From contig OZ244999.1 in the NCBI GenBank assembly GCA_965223265.1, positions 8,800,001 through 8,864,000 on the forward strand: a stretch of DNA of 64,000 nucleotides, given 5' to 3'. Position numbers and translations under genes: made by a program. The DNA comes from Planctomycetota bacterium. GTDB lineage: Bacteria; Planctomycetota; UBA8108; SXIK01. Positions 17,887 to 38,633 of the stretch are shown here, in pieces. The first letter of the stretch is position 1. Each line of letters starts with the position of its first letter. The notes beneath the pieces were generated by a model. It did no database searches. It was given only the letters and a program-made list of their open reading frames with translations, and was not told the origin of the DNA.

Positions 17887-18371
17887 ACTTTCTGAAGAAC
17901 AAATGGTTGACGCGTATCTGCGCTTGGGTGCTTGGGGGGTTCTTCCTCTATGCCTGCTGGCACAAGATTTTCGATCCGCCAGACTTCGCCAAAAGCGTCA
18001 ACAACTACAAGATCCTTCCCAGCGAGCTCGTCAACCTCGCGGCGATTGTGTTGCCGTGGCTGGAGCTTTTCTGTGGCCTGGCGCTCCTAACCGGGCTCGG
18101 ACGACGTGGAGCGGCGCTGATTTCGGGAGCTCTGTTGACTCTGTTCATCGTCGCGTTGTGCTACAACTTGGCGCGCGGCGTCCCGACGATCTGTGGCTGT
18201 ACACTGAGTTACGAAGAGTCTCTGAAATTCACGGACGAAGAGAAGTTTCGCCAGATGAAGATCGTGATCGCGCGCGACATTGGATTGTTGCTGCTCGCCG
18301 TGCAGGTCTTCTTCGCGACGTGCTGCAGCTGCTGCACTCCGGATCAAGAACGGACGCCTGCAGCGTCCTAA
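17883..18371 (+). CDS. MauE/DoxX family membrane protein
   Basis: KIFDPPDF, LPWLEL, CGC, ARD motifs. ATGA overlap with the rhodanese gene. Confidence 0.85.
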   Translation: MNFLKNKWLTRICAWVLGGFFLYACWHKIFDPPDFAKSVNNYKILPSELVNLAAIVLPWLELFCGLALLTGLGRRGAALISGALLTLFIVALCYNLARGVPTICGCTLSYEESLKFTDEEKFRQMKIVIARDIGLLLLAVQVFFATCCSCCTPDQERTPAAS

Positions 18372-19525
18372 TTCTGAAAACCGTTTTGCGGGCGCGGCGC
18401 CGAACAGCGCAGCACGGTGTAACCACGTTTCCCACGCCATGTGCGCTCAGCGAAGTGTCGTTCACAGATGGCCTGGGCTTTCTCTGTCGCCTTGGTGACA
18501 CACCAGTAGGCGCCACCGGGTGCCAAGACGTGTGCTGACTCGCGGCAGAAGTGTTCGAAGATACGAAAATCTCCGAAGTACGGCGGATTGGCGAGGACGA
18601 CGTCGACGCTCCTCGGCTTCAGCGAACCGAGATCGTAGGCGAGGAGCGGTAAGACGTTGTCGCACGCACAGCTTTTGGCGTTGACTGCGGCCTGCTCAAC
18701 GGCGCGGACGTTCGAGTCTACGAGGATCGCGTGACCCGCGCTGGCGACACGGGCTGCGGCGATGCCGAGAGCTCCTGGACCGCAGCCAAGCTCTACGACC
18801 CGCGAGTCGGTTTCGATCGCCGCGAAGTCCGCAAGCGTGCGAGCGCCGTCGTCCAACCGGCCGTGGGCGAAGACGCCGGGCCGGGTGACGTAATCGATCG
18901 CATGACCGAAAAGCTGCGCAGCGATCCGACGGGTGAAGTCGCGGCGTCGCAGCTGACGGTCGCGCTGTCGACGCGCCACGTAGACGACGCCGCCCCGAGA
19001 TCGGTCGTGGATCGTCGCGTCGCCAAAAATGTCGACGACGCGCTCGCGCAGCCAACGGTCTGACCGGTTGTCTGTAGCGGTCAGTAGCTTGCCTCGTGGC
19101 CGGAGGGCCTCAAAACACTGCCGCAGTAGCTCTCCGGTCAATCGTGCGTCAGCAGTGTGCGGCGCCGCAAAGACAACCCAGTCGAATGCTCCTCGCGGCA
19201 AATCCGACGCGAGATGCGGCGTGACTGCAGCGATATGATTGATCCGGAGGCTCTCGCAGCCGCGGTGGAACTCGTACGCGTCCATGTCGAACGAGTGGAC
19301 GTTCGCACTTGGAAAAAGGAGTCGGACGGCCATGGCGCCGACGCTTTCCGGACTGAGAACGACGAGAATATCTCCTGCCATGGGTTGATCCAGCGCCGCC
19401 AGCAAAACCCGCTGGGCGCGTTGAAGCCCGCGCGCTGAATGGATCTCGATGCGGCCACCGAGGAGAGTCTCACGCCGCCGTGCTTTCGATGGGTTGCCCA
19501 GTGTGACGACGTGTTTCTCAGTCAC
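18368..19525 (-). CDS. RsmC/RlmG-like class I SAM methyltransferase
   Basis: PGVFAHGRLDDG, ELGCGPG, NPPY. Start approximate. Confidence 0.8.
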   Translation of the reverse strand: MTEKHVVTLGNPSKARRRETLLGGRIEIHSARGLQRAQRVLLAALDQPMAGDILVVLSPESVGAMAVRLLFPSANVHSFDMDAYEFHRGCESLRINHIAAVTPHLASDLPRGAFDWVVFAAPHTADARLTGELLRQCFEALRPRGKLLTATDNRSDRWLRERVVDIFGDATIHDRSRGGVVYVARRQRDRQLRRRDFTRRIAAQLFGHAIDYVTRPGVFAHGRLDDGARTLADFAAIETDSRVVELGCGPGALGIAAARVASAGHAILVDSNVRAVEQAAVNAKSCACDNVLPLLAYDLGSLKPRSVDVVLANPPYFGDFRIFEHFCRESAHVLAPGGAYWCVTKATEKAQAICERHFAERTWRGKRGYTVLRCSAPRPQNGFQN

Positions 19526-19730
19526 GATTCTTCTATGTTGAGGCTGGGGGCCGATGGACGCTGGTTGGGATCCTGCCGCGATGGCGCTCGCACGCCTTGG
19601 TTGTACATGAACCGCTGACGGCAGGATGGTGGCAAGACCCGACAAGCCGTGAACGCCTTAGTGTTGTTCACGACAGTTGGTACATCAACGCACTCGTGAC
19701 CGGAAAGTGAGGCCATGCCTACGAACTCAA

Positions 19731-19761
19731 GGCGCGGCGGGTCTGAGGGGAGGCAGAGGCG
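19731..19761 (+). other. Conserved leader motif preceding microsatellite (copy 1 of 3)
   Basis: GGCGCGGCGGGTCTGAGGGGAGGCAGAGGCG. Near-identical at 20630 and 34692. Confidence 0.8.
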
Positions 19762-20018
19762 GAGACAGAGACAGAGACAGAGACAGAGACAGAGACAGAG
19801 ACAGAGACAGAGACAGAGACAGAGACAGAGACAGAGACAGAGACAGAGACAGAGACAGAGACAGAGACAGAGACAGAGACAGAGACAGAGACAGAGACAG
19901 AGACAGAGACAGAGACAGAGACAGAGACAGAGACAGAGACAGAGACAGAGACAGAGACAGAGACAGAGACAGAGACAGAGACAGAGACAGAGACAGAGAC
20001 AGAGACAGAGACAGAGAC
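19762..20018 (+). repeat. Perfect hexanucleotide microsatellite (GAGACA)x42 plus GAGAC
   Basis: Read directly. Followed by (GCCCAC)x3 at 20024-20041. Confidence 0.97.
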
Positions 20019-20064
20019 GGGCCGCCCACGCCCACGCCCACGCACAGCGGTGCGGCGGCGATCG

Positions 20065-20243
20065 CGCCGACGGCAGAGAAGAACTCTGCTGCTCTGGGCG
20101 ATCATGCGGCGGCGGTTTTGTCGATCTTAACCGAAGCCGAGCCGGCCTCAAGGGTGCCCTCGCTGCGCTCGGCGCTTCGCGCCCTTGACCCCGTCTCTGC
20201 TTCGGTTGGCGGCAGTGAAACGCCGCCGCGTCGGGCGTCGGCG
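20065..20243 (+). other. Conserved multi-stem structured element upstream of four-helix-bundle gene (core 20148-20188)
   Basis: Core TCAAGGG-TGCCCTCGCTGCGCTCGGCGCTTCGCG-CCCTTGA inside nested IRs (AACCGAAGC/GCTTCGGTT, CGCCGACG/CGTCGGCG). Confidence 0.75.
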
Positions 20244-20274
20244 ACAGGTCACTGGGCCGTTACCGGAGGCACAC

Positions 20275-20598
20275 ATGGGCTTTCTTGCTCTGGATCACAC
20301 TTTTGGCATCGTTCGTCAACTGCGTCCCCTGGTCTCGAGCATCCGTCGTCACGACTCGAAGCTGGCCAATCAGCTGCGCGATGCCGGTTCGTCTGTGGCG
20401 CTCACCCTCGGCGAGGGCAATCGGCGTCAGGGGCGTGACCGCGGGCATCTTTGGCGCGTTGCTTCGGGCAGCGCCGAAGAGGTGCGCACGGCGCTTCGCG
20501 TTGCTGAAGCTTGGGGCTACATCGACCAAGCCGAGGCTGCTGCGGTGCTCACGGACATCGATGAGCTGCAGGCGATGCTTTGGAAGTTGACGCGCTGA
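20275..20598 (+). CDS. Four-helix-bundle protein (23S rRNA intervening-sequence protein / Avd-like family), 107 aa
   Basis: QLRDAGSSVALTLGEG and VASGSAEEV match the family pattern Q.RRAA.S...N..EG / A.GS..E. GGAGG RBS at 20265. Confidence 0.85.
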   Translation: MGFLALDHTFGIVRQLRPLVSSIRRHDSKLANQLRDAGSSVALTLGEGNRRQGRDRGHLWRVASGSAEEVRTALRVAEAWGYIDQAEAAAVLTDIDELQAMLWKLTR

Positions 20599-20629
20599 CG
20601 CGGGAGCTTTGGCCCGCCGTGCGCTATTT

Positions 20630-20793
20630 GGCGCGGCGGGTTTGACGGGGAGGCAGGGGCGGATACGGATACAGAGCCAGAGGCAGAAGCAGAGTCAGAA
20701 CCAGAGTCAGATACGGATACAGAGCCAGAGTCAGAATCAGAGTCAGATACGGATACGGAGTCGGAAGCAGACTACCACGCCCACGCTCACGCG
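20630..20793 (+). repeat. Leader motif copy 2 plus 18 degenerate GANNCR hexamers (20662-20769) and CACGCN x3
   Basis: GATACG GATACA GAGCCA GAGGCA GAAGCA GAGTCA GAACCA... with strict 6-nt phase. Confidence 0.9.
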
Positions 20794-20822
20794 CGTCGCT
20801 TCATTGGAAACGGCAAGAGCTT

Positions 20823-20848
20823 GCGCCCGCCGCGGATACGGCGGGCGC
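20823..20848 (-). terminator. GC-rich hairpin 3' of four-helix-bundle gene copy 2
   Basis: GCGCCCGCCG-cggata-CGGCGGGCGC. No clear U-tract. Confidence 0.55.
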
Positions 20849-20861
20849 GGGTGGCTCATGC

Positions 20862-21185
20862 TCAGCGGGTGAGCCCGCGAAGAAGTGCTAGCAGGCGATC
20901 GAGCGTCTTGAGCGGAGTGGTGACGTCTTCGTTCTTGAGAACGCCCCAGGCCAGGGCCAGTTGTAGCGCCGTTTCGACCTCGCGCGCACTGCCGCGCGCG
21001 ACGCGAAAGAGGTGCTGGCGATCTTTCCCGGAGCGCTCAGCGCCTTCCGAGAGGTTGAGCGCGACCGAGGAAGCAGCGCGCCGGATCTGCCGGTGCAGGT
21101 CGGGATCGAGCCGCCGAAGCCGCACCAAAGGAGCCCGCAGGTCGCCGATCAAACCGAGACTGACGTCGAGAGCGATGAAGCGCAT
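20862..21185 (-). CDS. Four-helix-bundle protein (23S IVP / Avd-like), 107 aa, copy 2
   Basis: QIRRAASSVALNLSEG and VARGSAREV. GGAGG RBS. Same length and same LTR C-terminal tripeptide as copy 1. Confidence 0.9.
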   Translation of the reverse strand: MRFIALDVSLGLIGDLRAPLVRLRRLDPDLHRQIRRAASSVALNLSEGAERSGKDRQHLFRVARGSAREVETALQLALAWGVLKNEDVTTPLKTLDRLLALLRGLTR

Positions 21186-21263
21186 GTGAAGCCTCCGAAG
21201 AAAAGGTGAGTCAAGAGCCGCCGCGTCCGATCGGCGGTACCTCACCCCCAATGCGGAGCGGAG

Positions 21264-21316
21264 GGACTGTCAAGAGCGCGAAGCGCCGAGCGCAGCGAGG
21301 GCACTCTTGACAGTCC
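21264..21316 (-). other. Conserved upstream hairpin, copy 2
   Basis: 13-bp perfect stem GGACTGTCAAGAG/CTCTTGACAGTCC around the same 27-nt core as 20155-20181. Confidence 0.85.
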
Positions 21317-21369
21317 TGAGCACGGCGTACCATCGACACAACCGCCGTACGGTAAACCGTGTCACAGCT

Positions 21370-21427
21370 CACACACGGTCACGGTCCACGGTCCACGCCC
21401 ACGCCCACGCAAACGCCCACGCAAACG
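21370..21427 (+). repeat. Degenerate CACGGT/CACGCC/AACGCC short tandem repeats
   Basis: Read directly. Confidence 0.8.
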
Positions 21428-21645
21428 GGAATCGGGAGGCCAGCACGGACCGCCAGCCCCGTCCACACACCGAATCTGCGGGCTTGTTTTGCTTCATGTC
21501 ACGGCGCGAGTCCACCAGGCAGCCTACTCTCTGCCTGCCCTGTTCAGCGCGAGGCACTTCTTCAAGCCTCTGCCTCGAAGTCCATGCCTTCCGTTGCTCT
21601 CGTGGATGCCATGCGATACGATCTCGCTCCATGGGAGATCGCAGT

Positions 21646-22731
21646 ATGACCTCAGCGGCGCAGACATCGGCGACGATGCGTGCCGTGGTTTGTGTGGCGA
21701 ACGGCAAGACGGTTTTCGAGCGTCGAGCCGTTCCAATCCCGGCGCGTGGCGAGATTGTTCTACGCCTTCGCGCCTGCGGTCTTTGCGGCACCGATCTTTT
21801 CAAGCTCGCACATCGGAGCGTGCCGAGCGGTACTGTGCTCGGACACGAGGTCGTCGGTGTCGTCGACAACGTTGGCGAAGGTGTCGACCAATTCGAGCCG
21901 GGCGACCGCGTCGTCGTCCCGCATCACGTCGCTTGCGGGAAGTGTCGGTTGTGCCGGCTCGGTAGCGAGACGATGTGCGCGACGTTTCGTGAGAATTTGA
22001 TGGAACCGGGCGGCTTTAGCGAGCGCGTCCTCATCCGCGAGCGCGCCGTGCGCTTGGCGGCGCGTCGACTGCCTGCGAGTGTCAGCGACGCGGCGGCGGT
22101 GTTTATGGAGCCGGCCGCTTGTGTCCTTCGCGGTCTACGCCAAGCGTCGATCGGCCCGGTCGCTGGCGACGACGACCGGCCGCCGGTCGCGGTCATCGTC
22201 GGAGCTGGAAGCATGGGGCTCCTCCATTTGCTCGTCCTTCGTGCATGGCGGCCTGAGGTCAGAATCGTCGTTGTCGATCCGATCGCAGAGCGATGTGATC
22301 TGGCGCTCGAGCTCGGCGCTCAGGTGGCGGTCACTCCAGGGGAAGACGTCGCCCGTCGCGCGGTCGACGAGCAGAGCGGTGGGCTCGGAGCCGATGCAGC
22401 TTTTGATACTGCGGGAGGCCCAGGCACACTAAATACTAGCCTGTCGCTTCTTCGACCTGGTGGTTCGGCCGTCCTTTTCGCGCATGCGCCAGAGGGTGGT
22501 CCGGCGAACTTCGATCTCAACGAGCTCTTCAAGAACGAACAACGCGTGCTTGGGACCTATTCGGGGGGATTGACCGACCAGGCTGAAGTCTACGAAATGA
22601 TCGCGAGCGGTCGCCTCGACGCATCATGTTTGGTCACGCACTCTCTACCCCTCGAGCGCTTCGACGCGGCCGTCGATCTCGTCAGGCGACACGAGGCTCT
22701 GAAAGTGCTTCTGGTGGCTCAAGAAGGATAG
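21646..22731 (+). CDS. Zinc-dependent alcohol/polyol dehydrogenase (MDR)
   Basis: CGTD, GHE, CGKCRLC..C, GAGSMG. Confidence 0.9.
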   Translation: MTSAAQTSATMRAVVCVANGKTVFERRAVPIPARGEIVLRLRACGLCGTDLFKLAHRSVPSGTVLGHEVVGVVDNVGEGVDQFEPGDRVVVPHHVACGKCRLCRLGSETMCATFRENLMEPGGFSERVLIRERAVRLAARRLPASVSDAAAVFMEPAACVLRGLRQASIGPVAGDDDRPPVAVIVGAGSMGLLHLLVLRAWRPEVRIVVVDPIAERCDLALELGAQVAVTPGEDVARRAVDEQSGGLGADAAFDTAGGPGTLNTSLSLLRPGGSAVLFAHAPEGGPANFDLNELFKNEQRVLGTYSGGLTDQAEVYEMIASGRLDASCLVTHSLPLERFDAAVDLVRRHEALKVLLVAQEG

Positions 22732-33337: not shown

Positions 33338-34675
33338 GTGTCTGTGCGGACGATTCTTGAGATTATCGTGTGGTCTCTTGCGACGGTTCTCCTCGTGGCT
33401 TGCGCCACGATTGACGAGGACGAAATCGAAGTCGGCGCTACCCAGCTGACGAGCATCGTCGTCAATGAAACGGTGCAGCGCGGTGGTGTTGATTGGCCTG
33501 GTTGGCGCGGCGCCGACGGGGATGGCTTCGTTCGTGGACTCGAGATACCACTGGCGTCATTGTCGTCCGCGCGGTGGAAGGAGAGTTGGCGTAGACACGT
33601 CGGGAGCGGATACTCCGGCGTCATCGTCACCGGCGAGCGCGTGTATTGTCTCGCACGCCAGGAGACGGACCATGAGTTCGTCAATTGCTACGATGCAGCG
33701 AGCGGCGACCTGCTCTGGGCTGTGGGGGCCGAAATGGAGCCGTGGAAGCAGCCGTGGATGGCGGGTGGTATCACGAATGGACCGCTCGCCACTCCGACGT
33801 ATGCCGACGGTCACGTTTACAGCGTTGGAATTCACGGACGCGTTCGCTGCCACGACGCCGTCACCGGGCGGCTTGTATTCGATGTGAAGCCGGAGAAACT
33901 TGACGCACGGAAGTCCGAGTACTTGTTTGGGCACGCAAGTTCACCGATTGTCTACGGTGGTCTAGTGATCGTATCGCTCGCAAGTGGCAAGGGAGGAAGC
34001 GTCGTGGCCCTCGATGCGAGCGATGGTTCACTGGTTTGGCGGGCTTTGCCTGAGACCGTCGCCTACACCTCCCCGGCGATGATGGAGGTCGATGGCGTCC
34101 CGATGCTCGTCGTACGTTCATGGGAACGCATCGTCGGGCTGGCGCCGGAAAGCGGCGAGATCCTTTGGCAACACGCGGCCGTAGCGCGCGGCATGCGCCG
34201 CGACTGCGCCTCCCCGGTCATCGCTGGCAACCTCGTGTTCGTCACGAACGAGTACCACGGCACCATCGCGCTACAAGTGTCGTCGAACGACGACGGCGCT
34301 TGGCAGGCCGAGCGACTCTACCGTAGCGGCGGGCTCGCCGCATCTACCTCCACACCGGTGTACGTCAGTGGCAGCCTTTACGGTCTGCACAAACGGGGGC
34401 GATTCGTCTGCATCGACGCGAACAGCGGCCGGCGCCGATGGGGCGTGAAGAAGTTCGACCAACACGCGTGTGTCATCGCGTCAGGATCCCATGGGTTGGT
34501 CCTCGATAATCGAGGTCTCCTTGCGCTCGTCAAGTTCGATTCAGAGCACGCTACGGTGTTGAGAGAGTGGACGATTGGGGCCGATACGTGGGGACATCCC
34601 GCAGCGGTCCGAAATCGACTGTTCTTCCGCGACGGCGAGGATCTCGTCTGCGTTGAGCTCGTGACGTCCCAGTGA
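33338..34675 (+). CDS. PQQ-binding-like beta-propeller repeat lipoprotein
   Basis: LVAC lipobox, DWPGWRG, repeated DAxSGxxxW blades. Confidence 0.85.
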   Translation: MSVRTILEIIVWSLATVLLVACATIDEDEIEVGATQLTSIVVNETVQRGGVDWPGWRGADGDGFVRGLEIPLASLSSARWKESWRRHVGSGYSGVIVTGERVYCLARQETDHEFVNCYDAASGDLLWAVGAEMEPWKQPWMAGGITNGPLATPTYADGHVYSVGIHGRVRCHDAVTGRLVFDVKPEKLDARKSEYLFGHASSPIVYGGLVIVSLASGKGGSVVALDASDGSLVWRALPETVAYTSPAMMEVDGVPMLVVRSWERIVGLAPESGEILWQHAAVARGMRRDCASPVIAGNLVFVTNEYHGTIALQVSSNDDGAWQAERLYRSGGLAASTSTPVYVSGSLYGLHKRGRFVCIDANSGRRRWGVKKFDQHACVIASGSHGLVLDNRGLLALVKFDSEHATVLREWTIGADTWGHPAAVRNRLFFRDGEDLVCVELVTSQ

Positions 34676-34691
34676 GACTGGGCAAGAATTT

Positions 34692-35130
34692 GGCGCGGCG
34701 GTTTGAGGGGGAGACAGGGGCGAAGACGGATCCAGATCCAGATACGGACCCGACAGTTGCATAAGTTTTCGCAGGAAGGGCTCAGAAACCCTTTCCCTGA
34801 GGTTCGATCGGCAGTTGAGGGACGTCGTGGCGGACCTCACGTTTGGTGAGGGTGACGGTGTGCCGTGTTCCCCCTCGCCCACGCACACCCACACGCAAAC
34901 TCTCACTCAATCGCAATCGCGCACGGGCTGTTAAGGCGCGTCTCTTTTGCAACGTTGGGGACAGAGTCAGAATCAGAGACGGATGGCGGATAGAGATACA
35001 GAAGCAGATGACAGAGTCAGAGACGGATGGCGGATAGAGATACAGAAGCAGATGACAGAGTCAGAGACGGAGACAGACACAGATACAGATACAGATGCAG
35101 AGTCAGAGACGGACTCGGATGACGGAGACA
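34692..35130 (+). repeat. Leader motif copy 3, GANNCR tracts, CAC-type tract and a 44-bp tandem duplication (34973-35060)
   Basis: GGCGCGGCGGTTTGAGGGGGAGACAGGGGCG followed by GATCCA/GATACG. Later GAGTCA/GAGACG/GATACA units. Confidence 0.85.
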
Positions 35131-35166
35131 GGGCCAGACGGTACAGAAGTCGCAGGCGCCGTGAGC

Positions 35167-35206: not shown

Positions 35207-35387
35207 TCAGCGCGTGAGGCCGCTGAGAAGAGCTAGGAGTCGATCGAGGGTCTGGAGAGGCACTGAGACGTCTTCGGTCTTGAGATCGCCCCGGGCCACA
35301 GAGAGCTGCAAGGCAGTCTCGACCTCCCGGGCACTGCCGCGGGCAACGCGGTAGAGGTGCAGTCGATCCTCCCCAGCGCGCTCGGCG
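35207..35387 (-). pseudogene. 5'-truncated four-helix-bundle gene (copy 3)
   Basis: C-terminal 59 aa match copy 2 at 46 positions (hand count). Fused directly to half of the upstream hairpin (35388-35400). Confidence 0.88.
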
Positions 35388-35427
35388 AGGGCACCCTTGA
35401 CCACGGGTAGCCCACACTGATGTTGGT

Positions 35428-35877
35428 TTGACGACCGTAACGGTCTTCTATCCCTACCACCCCCTTGCGGGACGCTCTCTGCCGGTCGTTCGGCGGACCT
35501 CGAGAGAACCGCCCTGCTACTTGGTTCAAATCGAGAAGCGCCAGCTCTTGGTGCCGTGCTGGATGACCGAGGAGAGCGCTATGTGGGTGGAGCTGTGTAG
35601 ATCGCCCCACATCGACGTGGAGGAGCTCCTCGTCATTGCGGCGATCGTAGAGTCTCGACTCCAAGAAGCACCATCGTCCATCCTTGACTCAGAACCAACT
35701 CGAACCAAGGAGGAGGACGATGGTGTGGACGCAGCTTACTCTACCGTTCTTGCCGCCGGAAGATCAAAGCGTGCTCGCAGTGCTGAGCGCGAAGGAGCGG
35801 GAGGAAATCGCTCGGGCAGTGGCGATTCTCCTGCAGGCGATCATCGAGAACCACGGTGTGGAGGGCGAGAACGATGA
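35428..35877 (+). CDS. Accessory protein of recombinase element (DUF5372/Y4bD-like)
   Basis: YPYHPLAGRSLPV and VPCWMT motifs typical of small ORFs upstream of this recombinase class. C-terminal third overlaps the next ORF. Confidence 0.6.
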   Translation: MTTVTVFYPYHPLAGRSLPVVRRTSREPPCYLVQIEKRQLLVPCWMTEESAMWVELCRSPHIDVEELLVIAAIVESRLQEAPSSILDSEPTRTKEEDDGVDAAYSTVLAAGRSKRARSAEREGAGGNRSGSGDSPAGDHREPRCGGRER

Positions 35878-35887
35878 GGATCGATAG
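35720..35887 (+). CDS. Small helical accessory protein (55 aa)
   Basis: AAGGAGGAGG RBS. Overlaps the recombinase start. Confidence 0.65.
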   Translation: MVWTQLTLPFLPPEDQSVLAVLSAKEREEIARAVAILLQAIIENHGVEGENDEDR

Positions 35888-37964
35888 CAATCATCCAGGT
35901 GGCGTCACTACCGAGCACCTCAGGCGCGCGGCAGTAGTATACATTCGTCAATCGTCGCCAACACAGGTGAAGAACAACGAAGAGAGCACGCGCCTGCAAC
36001 GCGAACTGAGGCACAAGGCGGTCGATCTTGGCTGGCGCGAGCCGATTCTCATCGAGGACGATCTCGGCGAGTCGGCTTCTGGATTCGTCGATCGCCCCGG
36101 CTTCGAGAAACTGAAGAGCTGGGTCATTGCCGGGGAAGTCGGGATTATCTTCTGTCTCGAGATTTCCCGACTGTCGAGGAATTCGGTGGACTGGGCGCGA
36201 CTGATGGAGCTTTGTCAGCACTTCAATACGCTGATCGCGGACACCGAGCAGGTCTACGATCTGTCGCTCTCTAACGACAGACTGTTGATCGGCATCCGTG
36301 GCTCGATCTCAGAAGCCGAGCTTGCGACGATTCGCTTGCGATTGCGCCTAGGTCAGCAGGCGAAAGCGAAGCGAGGTGAGCTGTGGATTCAGTTACCGAT
36401 CGGCTACGTCTACGACGACACTGAGATTGTCTTCGATCCCGACGAGAGAATCCGTACCGCGATCCGCCGTGTCTTTCAGGACTTCCGTGGCTCCAGTAGT
36501 GCCCGACAGCTCGCATTGCATTACCGAGACGCGGGGATCGAGTTTCCGAGTCGGGGCTTGGGCAACAAGACGGTCAGGTGGGCGGTGCCGTCGGCCAAGT
36601 CGCTACACAACCTCCTGGTCAATCCGACCTATGCTGGAGTCTACGCTTGGGGTCGTTCAAGGACGACAAGCAAGATCGCCGATGGGAGGCTGGTCAAACA
36701 GCGTGAACGTCGGCAAGATCCTGGTGAAGCTCGGGTGATGATCCGTGACCATCACCCAGCCTACATCGATTGGTCAGAGTACGAAGCGAACTTGAAGAAG
36801 CTATCGCAGAATCGACCGCGAAGAGGGCTCGACGGCAACCGAGGAGCCGCGCGGGAAGGCCAGGCTCTCCTGGCGGGGATGTTGCGTTGTGGTCACTGTG
36901 GCGATCAGCTGAAGGTCCGGTACCGATACGAGAAGGCCTTCTATTACTGCGACGGCACACGAAAGGGGAACTCACGCATTTGTCTCTCTGTTGGGGCATG
37001 TCGCGTTGACCCGATCGTCGCGCAGCAGTTGTGTCGAGCGCTTGACTCCTCGGGGATCGAGGCTGCGACCAGGGCGTTCGAGCAGATCGAGAAGAGCCGA
37101 GCCGACGAGTTGAACTACGCGAAGCAGCAGGTCGAGGCTGCGCAGTACGCCGCCAGTCATGCATTCGAACAGTTCGACGCGTGCGATCCGAGGAATCGCC
37201 TTGTTGCGGACAACCTCGAGAAACGTCTCAACGACAAGCTTCAGCGGCTTGCCGAGGCAAAGGAGACACTCCACAAGCAGCAGTCGTCGAGATTGACGTT
37301 GACTGTCGCAGAGCGAAAACGTCTCGAGACTCTCGCACGGAACTTCCAGTTGGTCTGGCGATCGACGATTGATGTCAGGCTGAAGAAGACTCTGCTGCGA
37401 GCAGCGATTCACGAGATCATGATCAAGGAGAGCGGCGAGCTCGTTGGATCCAATCGGCAAAGTCGCCGCCTGGAATTGACGATTCACTGGAAGGGCGGCG
37501 TACACTCTACCTCCGAGCTGTTGCGATTCCCCTCTCCGAAGGCATCAAGGGAAGTTTCGGTGCTCGAGCTGATCAAGCGGCTCAGCGCCGCGGCGCATAG
37601 TGACAGCGAGATTGCCTTAGTGCTTAACAGACGAAGGCTCACGACCACACGGTGGACCAAAGACAAGGTGACCGAATTTCGCAAACACAACGGTATCAAT
37701 TCAGCGCAGTCCTCCGATGATGCGTTGTCGATGAACGGCGCCAGCAAGTACCTAGGAGTTTCCTCGATAGCATTACGTACGCTTGTCGAACGAGGATTGA
37801 TCAGGAAAAACCAAGTCGCCGAGTTCGCCCCCTGGCGCGTCTCTCGCCACGAGCTGGACTCCCCAGGAGTCCGGAGCCTCGTGGCGACGCTCAAGGCGAC
37901 GGGTCGATTCCCGCCTAAGGAGGGCTGCGCGAAGAACCAGATGACGCTCTTCGACGACCTATGA
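35874..37964 (+). CDS. Large serine recombinase (resolvase, recombinase, Zn-ribbon/coiled-coil and C-terminal HTH-like domains)
   Basis: YIRQS catalytic motif, EDDLGESASG, EISRLSRN, NPTYAG, CGHCG...C..C. Confidence 0.95.
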   Translation: MRIDSNHPGGVTTEHLRRAAVVYIRQSSPTQVKNNEESTRLQRELRHKAVDLGWREPILIEDDLGESASGFVDRPGFEKLKSWVIAGEVGIIFCLEISRLSRNSVDWARLMELCQHFNTLIADTEQVYDLSLSNDRLLIGIRGSISEAELATIRLRLRLGQQAKAKRGELWIQLPIGYVYDDTEIVFDPDERIRTAIRRVFQDFRGSSSARQLALHYRDAGIEFPSRGLGNKTVRWAVPSAKSLHNLLVNPTYAGVYAWGRSRTTSKIADGRLVKQRERRQDPGEARVMIRDHHPAYIDWSEYEANLKKLSQNRPRRGLDGNRGAAREGQALLAGMLRCGHCGDQLKVRYRYEKAFYYCDGTRKGNSRICLSVGACRVDPIVAQQLCRALDSSGIEAATRAFEQIEKSRADELNYAKQQVEAAQYAASHAFEQFDACDPRNRLVADNLEKRLNDKLQRLAEAKETLHKQQSSRLTLTVAERKRLETLARNFQLVWRSTIDVRLKKTLLRAAIHEIMIKESGELVGSNRQSRRLELTIHWKGGVHSTSELLRFPSPKASREVSVLELIKRLSAAAHSDSEIALVLNRRRLTTTRWTKDKVTEFRKHNGINSAQSSDDALSMNGASKYLGVSSIALRTLVERGLIRKNQVAEFAPWRVSRHELDSPGVRSLVATLKATGRFPPKEGCAKNQMTLFDDL

Positions 37965-38155
37965 AGGTAAATCGACCGGGTTGTATCAAAGATTCGTCAG
38001 ATTACGTCGGCTTACACCGAAAGGACTTACGACAGCGGAAGGTTGGAGGTGCATTGTGTGCTCGACTTCACACCCGTGAGCACCGCGTACGCTCGACAAT
38101 GACCGCCGCCGTACGGTGACCCGGGTTCCCCCTCCCCCTCCCCCTCTCGCAAGAG

Positions 38156-38185
38156 CGGACGGCACACGGCGACGTGTGCCGTCCG
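38156..38185. other. Perfect 13-bp hairpin with GCGA loop
   Basis: CGGACGGCACACG-GCGA-CGTGTGCCGTCCG, followed by (GACCGY)x6 at 38186-38221. Confidence 0.8.
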
Positions 38186-38215
38186 GACCGTGACCGTGAC
38201 CGCGACCGTGACCGC

Positions 38216-38377
38216 GACCGTGAGTCTCGGCGGCACGTCTTAAGAAATTCACAGCCTCGGCGTGCGCCCGCTACTTTAGGAAACCCCACTCCCACTCCCC
38301 CTCCCACTCGTGACCGTCAGTTTCGGCGGTGCGTTCTAAAAAACTCACAGCCTCGGTATGTGCCCGCTACTTTAGGA

Positions 38378-38380
<3 letters not shown>
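38216..38380 (+). repeat. Two diverged ~69-bp direct repeats (period 96), each followed by hexamer repeats
   Basis: 38216-38284 and 38312-38380, both ending GCCCGCTACTTTAGGAAAC. Confidence 0.85.
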
Positions 38381-38605
<225 letters not shown>

Positions 38606-38633
38606 AACCCGGACTCCCCCCGGCGCCCGAACG

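Follow-up and report, generated by a model that had tools for sequence, protein, structure and literature searches.

The leader of about 35 nt that recurs on the + strand of the window (the whole stretch of 64,000 nucleotides analysed here) consists, with a probability of roughly 80%, of the 3' arm of a hairpin, a short T-run and the first worn units of a hexamer array, its copies being the paralogous 3' ends of a multi-copy gene cassette that we denote type A. The leader would accordingly fall into three parts: the stem-loop 3' arm GGCGCGGCGGG; a run of 2-5 T or C; and the first two or three degenerate GANNCR units, so that the microsatellite would start directly behind the T-run. Such a leader would have been copied along with the gene as an ordinary gene-end signal, not as a repeat-making device. 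The likeness of the three window sites would stem from shared descent, each being a paralogous copy of one multi-copy cassette's 3' end, and the repeats behind them would differ because microsatellite interiors change fast while their edges stay fixed and decay. At position 20630, the gene and the whole hairpin are present; at 19731 and 34692, neither gene nor left arm is left, and what remains, the right arm, T-run and array, borders unique DNA. The latter two sites would represent truncated cassette blocks, produced either by a deletion ending at the hairpin or by the copying of a block that ends there.

The sequence shared by the three sites, all on the + strand, starts with GGCGCGGCGGGTCTGAGGGG at 19731, GGCGCGGCGGGTTTGACGGGG at 20630 and GGCGCGGCGGTTTGAGGGGG at 34692, and each copy continues into GANNCR hexamer repeats. 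The first-pass annotation of this DNA had described three + strand leaders followed by unlike repeats, and both the positions and the differences in repeat content and length were confirmed from the sequence. The sites and the gene preceding the third one are as follows.

19731..19766, + strand: leader copy 1, gene-less; 3' arm GGCGCGGCGGG, TCT, then the first degenerate hexamers (profile E 0.019)
20630..20665, + strand: leader copy 2, the gene-linked reference form; 3' arm, TTT, then the array units GACGGG GAGGCA GGGGCG (profile E 8.6e-8)
34692..34727, + strand: leader copy 3, gene-less; 17 nt past the stop of the PQQ/BamB-like gene (profile E 0.012)
33338-34675: PQQ/BamB-like beta-propeller gene, upstream neighbour of leader copy 3

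Inside the window, the evidence for a 16-mer motif is weak by itself: an ungapped test allowing up to 3 mismatches yielded 5 matches against 1.58 expected, a number reached by 4 of 100 shuffles. Only the two matches with 0-1 mismatches correspond to previously noted sites; the third leader site carries a 1-nt deletion and was therefore missed by the ungapped test. Across the genome, a single contig of 9.18 Mb with 60.8% G+C, the leader motif is clearly non-random, with 17 matches to the 18-mer TTGGCGCGGCGGGTTTGA (up to 2 mismatches) and none to the reversed control. The same 18-mer has 0-2 matches per genome in 40 related genomes, and the leader is specific to this genome. A leader profile was built from 17 gene-linked copies, with 20630 held out and with 19731 and 34692 never included. 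It matched at 20625-20668 (genome-wide E 8.6e-8), 34688-34727 (0.012) and 19732-19768 (0.019). Judged by sequence alone, the matches at 34688-34727 and 19732-19768 would be marginal; they become convincing because each sits exactly where one of the 138 GANNCR arrays of the genome starts. A search of window positions 17000-40000 with Rfam models gave no matches at E up to 1.

The genes linked to the leader encode four-helix-bundle proteins of the PF05635 family (23S rRNA intervening-sequence protein), which is represented at 38 places in the genome. The translations comprise 18 type-A proteins (ending in ...LWKLTR/H; one frameshifted), 19 type-B proteins (ending in ...GLTR) and one degraded copy. 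Those in the window, and the recombinase gene next to one of them, are listed below.

20275..20598, + strand: type-A four-helix-bundle gene (PF05635, 107 aa; Pfam 53.6 bits, cut-off 33.8)
20862..21185, - strand: type-B four-helix-bundle gene (PF05635, 107 aa; Pfam 56.9 bits), convergent with the type-A gene
35207..35404, - strand: type-B gene, 3' half only (PF05635 23.3 bits, profile positions 54-105, below the cut-off)
35856-37964, + strand: large serine recombinase gene (Resolvase, Recombinase and Zn_ribbon_recom domains)

The type-B copy at 35207-35404 has lost its 5' half to an inserted element and has the serine recombinase gene alongside; a motif search of the window did not find the missing half. 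When the leader profile was run against the entire genome, as the first-pass annotation had suggested doing with the motif, the expected proximity to four-helix-bundle genes was recovered: of the 23 copies at E<0.05, 18 lie behind, and directly adjoin, the 18 type-A genes, and five have no intact gene. Four of these five are gene-less, namely 8819732 (window 19731), 8834688 (window 34692), 7515227 and 6782712, and the fifth, at 8664935, adjoins an internally deleted gene and retains the full hairpin. In the latter locus (8664850-8664980), the type-A 5' region is fused to what remains of the gene, about its last 30 nt, with an intact hairpin, leader and array behind it; such near-total gene loss indicates that cassettes decay by internal deletion. 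Seven convergent type-A/type-B pairs share a single inter-gene array, for instance the pair at window positions 20275-21185, and three more type-B genes face a gene-less leader. Over about 1.8 kb, the A-B pair loci share 90-97% identity, suggesting that the whole pair was duplicated recently as one block.

A GC-rich stem-loop contributes its 3' arm, GGCGCGGCGGG, as the first 11 nt of the leader, and type-B genes are followed by a stem-loop of their own.

20611..20643, + strand: terminator-like stem-loop of the type-A gene (left arm 20611-20622, right arm 20631-20642, TTT 20641-20643)
20823..20848, - strand: stem-loop behind the type-B gene (-34.4 kcal/mol, z -5.2, 0 of 200 shuffles as good)

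In all 18 type-A genes, the stem-loop begins 13-20 nt past the stop codon and is followed by a few T residues; the T/C-run after the stem measures 2-5 nt in each of the 23 leader copies. The right arm is GGCGCGGCGGG or a one-base variant of it (the GCGCGGCGGG type) in 16 of the 18 genes, and is different but still pairing in the other two. Standard pairs occupy 212 of the 216 pair cells across the 18 hairpins, with 4 cells unpaired. None of the 12 stem pairs displays a two-sided compensatory change in this set; all stem changes are one-sided (C-G to U-G, U-G to U-A or C-G), so that the hairpin structure rests on conservation among paralogues of shared ancestry. The window hairpin folds into a 12-bp stem that includes two G-U pairs with the T-run, at -30.7 kcal/mol in a 61-nt context. 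With a z of -1.75 and 13 of 200 shuffles folding as well, this is not clearly better than shuffles of the same GC-rich stretch. A hairpin of the form found at 20823..20848 stands behind 19 of the 19 type-B genes.

Most likely, the terminator-like type-A stem-loop ends or stabilises the transcript of the small gene. It would then belong to the terminators with a short U-tract, a kind common in GC-rich bacteria. A simple terminator and promoter scan of positions 19300-21500 returned no sites: the U-tract rule asks for at least 5 T in the 8 nt following the stem, and the T-run of the type-A hairpin falls short of that. At 19731 and 34692, where the gene is missing, the leader copies fold no stable hairpin (z +0.19 and +0.13, respectively) and hence cannot act as terminators in a like manner.

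The repeat tracts that surround the leader copies in the window are the following.

19750..20018, + strand: (GAGACA)x44.8 microsatellite (TRF period 6, 98% matches, score 517)
20023..20043, + strand: CGCCCA x3.5, a second, C-rich hexamer type (TRF)
20662..20769, + strand: mixed GANNCR array (GATACG, GATACA, GAGCCA, GAGGCA and others; sequence and TRF)
~34716-34749, + strand: short tract after leader copy 3 (sequence and TRF)
34750..34960, + strand: MITE-like insert in the array, ~213 bp, with inverted ends CCGACAGTTGCA ... TGCAACGTTGGGG
34960..35131, + strand: GANNCR-type array resuming after the MITE-like insert (TRF)

The tract at 19750..20018 is the array upstream of the window type-A cassette, and the stretch matching the arrays that precede other type-A cassettes begins there (8302787-8303717 versus 8819749-8820681). 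Past the T-run, the first unit opens with GA in 21-23 of the 23 leader copies, and units 1, 2 and 3 fit GANNCR in 11, 12 and 10 of the 23, respectively, so that the leader's 3' part is to be counted as array. At least three perfect GANNCR units are present within the match plus 60 nt in 18 of the 23 copies, consistent with the claim that the motif runs into repeats; of the remaining five, two have imperfect tracts and three have two units or none.

Genome-wide, GANNCR arrays of at least 30 nt occupy 138 loci, the longest spanning 348 nt. Only 13 of these arrays start at the leader and 125 lack it. Tracts that mostly lack the motif are the outcome that the first-pass annotation had itself named as speaking against its proposal, and the leader cannot be retained as a general array start. 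Arrays also abut other recurrent sequences, including the type-B 5' region, the MITE ends and a repeat spaced at about 1.7-1.8 kb. The latter is found at 487133-496051, where short GANNCR tracts form part of the repeated unit and an identical 70-nt end precedes the tracts at 489000, 490690, 492487, 494213 and 496010. Overall, TRF reported 856 period-6 rows for the genome, covering about 34 kb.

The arrays have a polarity. C-rich ACKCNN hexamers (at least 3 units, within 80 nt) come after 47 of the 138 GANNCR arrays and before only 2; the units include CCCACG, CACACG, CAAACG and others, and read as (GGGCGT)n-like on the opposite strand. Window examples are 19750-20043, 20662-20795 and 38127-38608. 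A strict junction palindrome between the two hexamer types, GTRCYGGYAC, was considered and rejected, being present in only 5 of the 138 arrays. Hairpins also occur in some of these surroundings. At 38216-38608, two copies of a 96-bp unit each contain a short hairpin together with a motif resembling CTACTTTAGGA; some 37 C-rich hexamers of the ACGCCC type come next, immediately upstream of a DUF1501 gene end. A similar hairpin with CTACTTT/CTACGATAT motifs recurs near other tracts, and a tandem 115-bp unit at 7605579-7606105, in at least 4 copies, combines a hexamer tract, C-rich hexamers and a hairpin. By a crude, home-made gene call (5349 ORFs) that is indicative only, 75 of the 107 intergenic arrays lie after a co-oriented gene and 45 of the 107 lie between convergent genes, compared with 18% of all gene pairs. 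The arrays thus seem to favour the 3' sides of genes, a preference to which the cassette pairs themselves contribute.

Among nine closely related cassette loci, the MITE is present in one orientation in five, in the opposite orientation at other array positions in two, and absent in two, which suggests that it inserted repeatedly into the tracts. Within this nine-locus subfamily, the leader-proximal units are common to the copies, and the differences consist of internal indels and MITE insertions, not of growth from the leader. On this comparison, the variation of the arrays appears to be ordinary microsatellite behaviour plus transposon insertion. Public reads yielded contigs of 501-538 nt over 20466-21003 (20466-20966 in X2) that showed no difference of any kind, and hence no variation in tract length, in four of four runs; these runs derive from two samples of one study, probably of the source organism, and do not represent independent strains.

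GANNCR arrays of at least 6 units were detected in 9 of 41 relatives (this genome counted) and in none of the three same-family genomes. At the phylum scale, they are present in 26 of 201 genomes, and PF05635 in 114 of 201. The heaviest loads, counted as pattern matches, belong to G091 (903), G226 (312) and G212 (265). Heavy GANNCR-type tracts are patchily distributed, occurring in the large planctomycete genomes G091, G226, G212, G014, G017, G007 and G005, and other units favoured in heavy-tract genomes are GAGTCG, GAATCG and GACTCG. Type-A-like genes (64-72% identical) are multi-copy in G007, a member of another genus and family, and have other hairpins behind them, without the leader; some type-A-like genes in G007 and G017 also precede other hexamer tracts. 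A dependence of the arrays on PF05635 was entertained and rejected: five of the six type-A-like genomes among the 41 relatives carry arrays, but the relationship fails at the phylum scale. Some large planctomycetes carry such arrays as a trait of the genome, independent of the cassette, and in the present genome the cassette simply sits among them. Nothing specific on hexanucleotide or microsatellite repeats in Planctomycetes emerged from a literature search. Rhodopirellula baltica is listed among satellite-rich species in PMC6749651, and the available parts of that article do not describe a GANNCR repeat family.

The gene-less leaders show where the cassette blocks end. The first window block is flanked by two genes with counterparts in related genomes.

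18368-19645, - strand: methyltransferase gene, left flank of the first window block
21676-22731, + strand: zinc alcohol dehydrogenase gene, right flank of the first window block

The block between them, about 1.9 kb long, contains, in order, a leader, (GAGACA)x45, the type-A gene, a leader, an array, the type-B gene and C-rich hexamers. In all three same-family genomes, the gap between the methyltransferase and alcohol dehydrogenase genes is about 110-165 bp and has no hexamer tracts; because the neighbours are adjacent in all three relatives, the block is an insertion in this lineage. The left edge of the insertion is at or near the leader, to within the precision set by the relatives' intergenic DNA, which is too diverged for base-level placement. 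For the block at 34.7-38.6 kb, a synteny comparison based on the PQQ-like and DUF1501 genes gave only paralogue matches in the three same-family genomes.

In 4 of the 23 copies, the leader or hairpin is the meeting point of a repeated block and unique DNA. The 400 nt upstream of 19731 and of 34692 are unique in the genome, and the 30 nt directly upstream of the leader are unlike the family at both sites, given that 259 of 300 shuffles score as well at 19731 and 177 of 300 at 34692. Homology to the A-B pair loci starts exactly at leader copy 3 (8303664-8304291 versus 8834689-8835386). For the blocks at 6782711 and 8834689, BLAST homology to the A-B pairs starts at one and the same query base, 8303664, at the border between the loop and the right arm, and the BLAST homology of the type-A module stops at the leader end (query 8303699-8303718 in most copies). 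Homology begins at the right arm for 19731, at the border of loop and right arm for 34692, within the left arm for 6782712 and at the left arm for 7515227. The copy at 7515227 keeps the whole hairpin, and the one at 6782712 apparently retains part of the left arm, a likeness that is not significant. The four block edges are ragged, being spread over about 25 nt.

Four independent truncations within about 25 nt of the hairpin are not obviously explained by random decay. In an alternative reading, the hairpin serves a mobile block as its functional end or junction: the stem-loop would be the place where array-bounded four-helix-bundle modules are cut, copied or joined, for example through breakage of a single-stranded hairpin followed by end joining, or by a hairpin-recognising recombinase, and the gene-less leaders would mark genuine ends of the element. 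Compatible with this are the unique DNA directly upstream of the arm or hairpin in four copies, the common query base at which homology begins in two loci, and the insertion at 19.7-21.6 kb, absent from three of three same-family genomes, with its left edge at or near the leader. However, the break points occupy no single fixed position, which is a misfit with a precise recombination site; the insertion edge lacks base-level resolution in the diverged DNA of the relatives; the outer borders of most cassette copies are arrays, not the hairpin; plain deletion also erodes cassettes, as at 8664935; and there is no recombinase gene linked to the hairpin, the one at 35856-37964 sitting in the element that interrupts a type-B gene. 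We therefore consider such a mobile block unlikely, and it is slightly more doubtful still that the type-A stem-loop is a break-and-rejoin hotspot for array-bounded modules, with the leaders at 19731 and 34692 as real ends of transposed blocks; if true, this would amount to hairpin-guided, transposase-free movement of small gene cassettes between hexamer tracts. In its favour are the four independent edges near the hairpin, one of the blocks being inserted relative to three sister genera. Because the break points are ragged and plain deletion variants exist, a dedicated recombination site is no more likely than simple truncation at the hairpin. The "element end" of the first-pass annotation thus survives in part, through the four copies that border unique DNA and the absence of the 19731 block from three relatives, but the ragged break points do not fit a precise site of recombination.

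The other interpretation offered at the outset, a priming site for repeat addition, fared worse. It would make the leader a primer or recognition site at which a polymerase adds hexamers, be it telomerase-like, a reverse transcriptase working with an Avd-like protein, or a primase. Arrays do start 0-8 nt from the T-run in 23 of 23 copies, the leader-proximal units are conserved and the distal content is variable, a pattern that extension from a fixed primer would also produce, and the PF05635 proteins are relatives of Avd, the accessory protein of DGRs. Yet the great majority of arrays (125 of 138) have no leader, GANNCR arrays exist in genomes devoid of it, and the most heavily loaded genome, G091, has a single PF05635 match. 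The far sides of the arrays are not free ends, being closed by conserved C-rich hexamers, the MITE or the type-B hairpin, and paralogous arrays differ internally. There are only four RVT_1 matches, with near-identical scores, at 1.90, 3.42, 3.52 and 5.91 Mb, none of them closer than about 150 kb to a PF05635 gene (the nearest such genes are at 2.04 and 5.66 Mb), so that no reverse transcriptase is found near the cassettes. Repeat addition from the leader is accordingly highly improbable. Only a little more credible, and still very unlikely, is that the G-rich stretch after the hairpin, GAGGGGAGGCAGGGGCGGA, is a candidate DNA- or RNA-binding site under selection, possibly one for the four-helix-bundle protein: copies resemble one another more closely in the first units than in those further on, and each gene type has its own hairpin with its own repeat type behind it, but the stretch differs by subfamily (GACGGGGAGGCA versus GAGGCGGGGGAGAGGCA versus GAGGCGGAACCG), as descent predicts. 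The reading of the leader as the paralogous 3' end of the type-A cassette removes the tempting but wrong lead of a fixed primer that seeds hexamer repeats, and fixes the anatomy of the cassette's 3' end, namely gene, stem-loop and T-run, with the repeat tract beginning immediately behind.

Several known systems share individual features with this arrangement. As in a CRISPR locus, a fixed sequence precedes variable repeats; however, the units here are 6 nt long and have no spacers, whereas CRISPR repeats are 21-48 nt long with unique spacers, most arrays are leaderless, and no cas genes were found among the neighbouring ORFs examined. Integron attC sites resemble the type-A hairpin in that a small cassette ends in an imperfect palindrome, within which some of the block borders are located here, but the cassettes have no attI beside them and no integrase among the neighbouring ORFs, the genes are scattered over 38 places and not stacked, and the break points are ragged. 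The intervening sequence in the 23S rRNA of Coxiella bears an ORF (PMC4990558) and, as far as it is covered in the part of that article available to us, offers a parallel for a small four-helix-bundle gene as multi-copy, possibly selfish DNA; unlike it, the cassettes described here lie outside rRNA genes, are bordered by hexamers and often form convergent A-B pairs.

The type-A stem-loop is similar to intrinsic terminators and 3' stabilising stem-loops in having a GC-rich stem of 10-12 bp located 13-20 nt past the stop codon, followed by T residues, in every gene copy. It differs from them in that the T-run of 2-5 nt fails the classical U-tract criterion, and two of the three window copies have no left arm. 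Among repeat families, species-specific dispersed repeats of 6-8 nt in Burkholderia and the (GATAGRA)n family in Chloroflexus (PMC6749651) are comparable, to the extent that the accessible portions of that article describe them, in that the repeats of the present genome are also species-restricted and dispersed; the latter differ in their fixed GA..C. frame with three free positions, their 138 loci and their polarity towards C-rich hexamers. Finally, the leader resembles the borders of microsatellites: its 3' two-thirds are imperfect GANNCR units that adjoin the tract, mostly in register with it, just as the pure core of (GAGACA)x45 lies beside worn edges.
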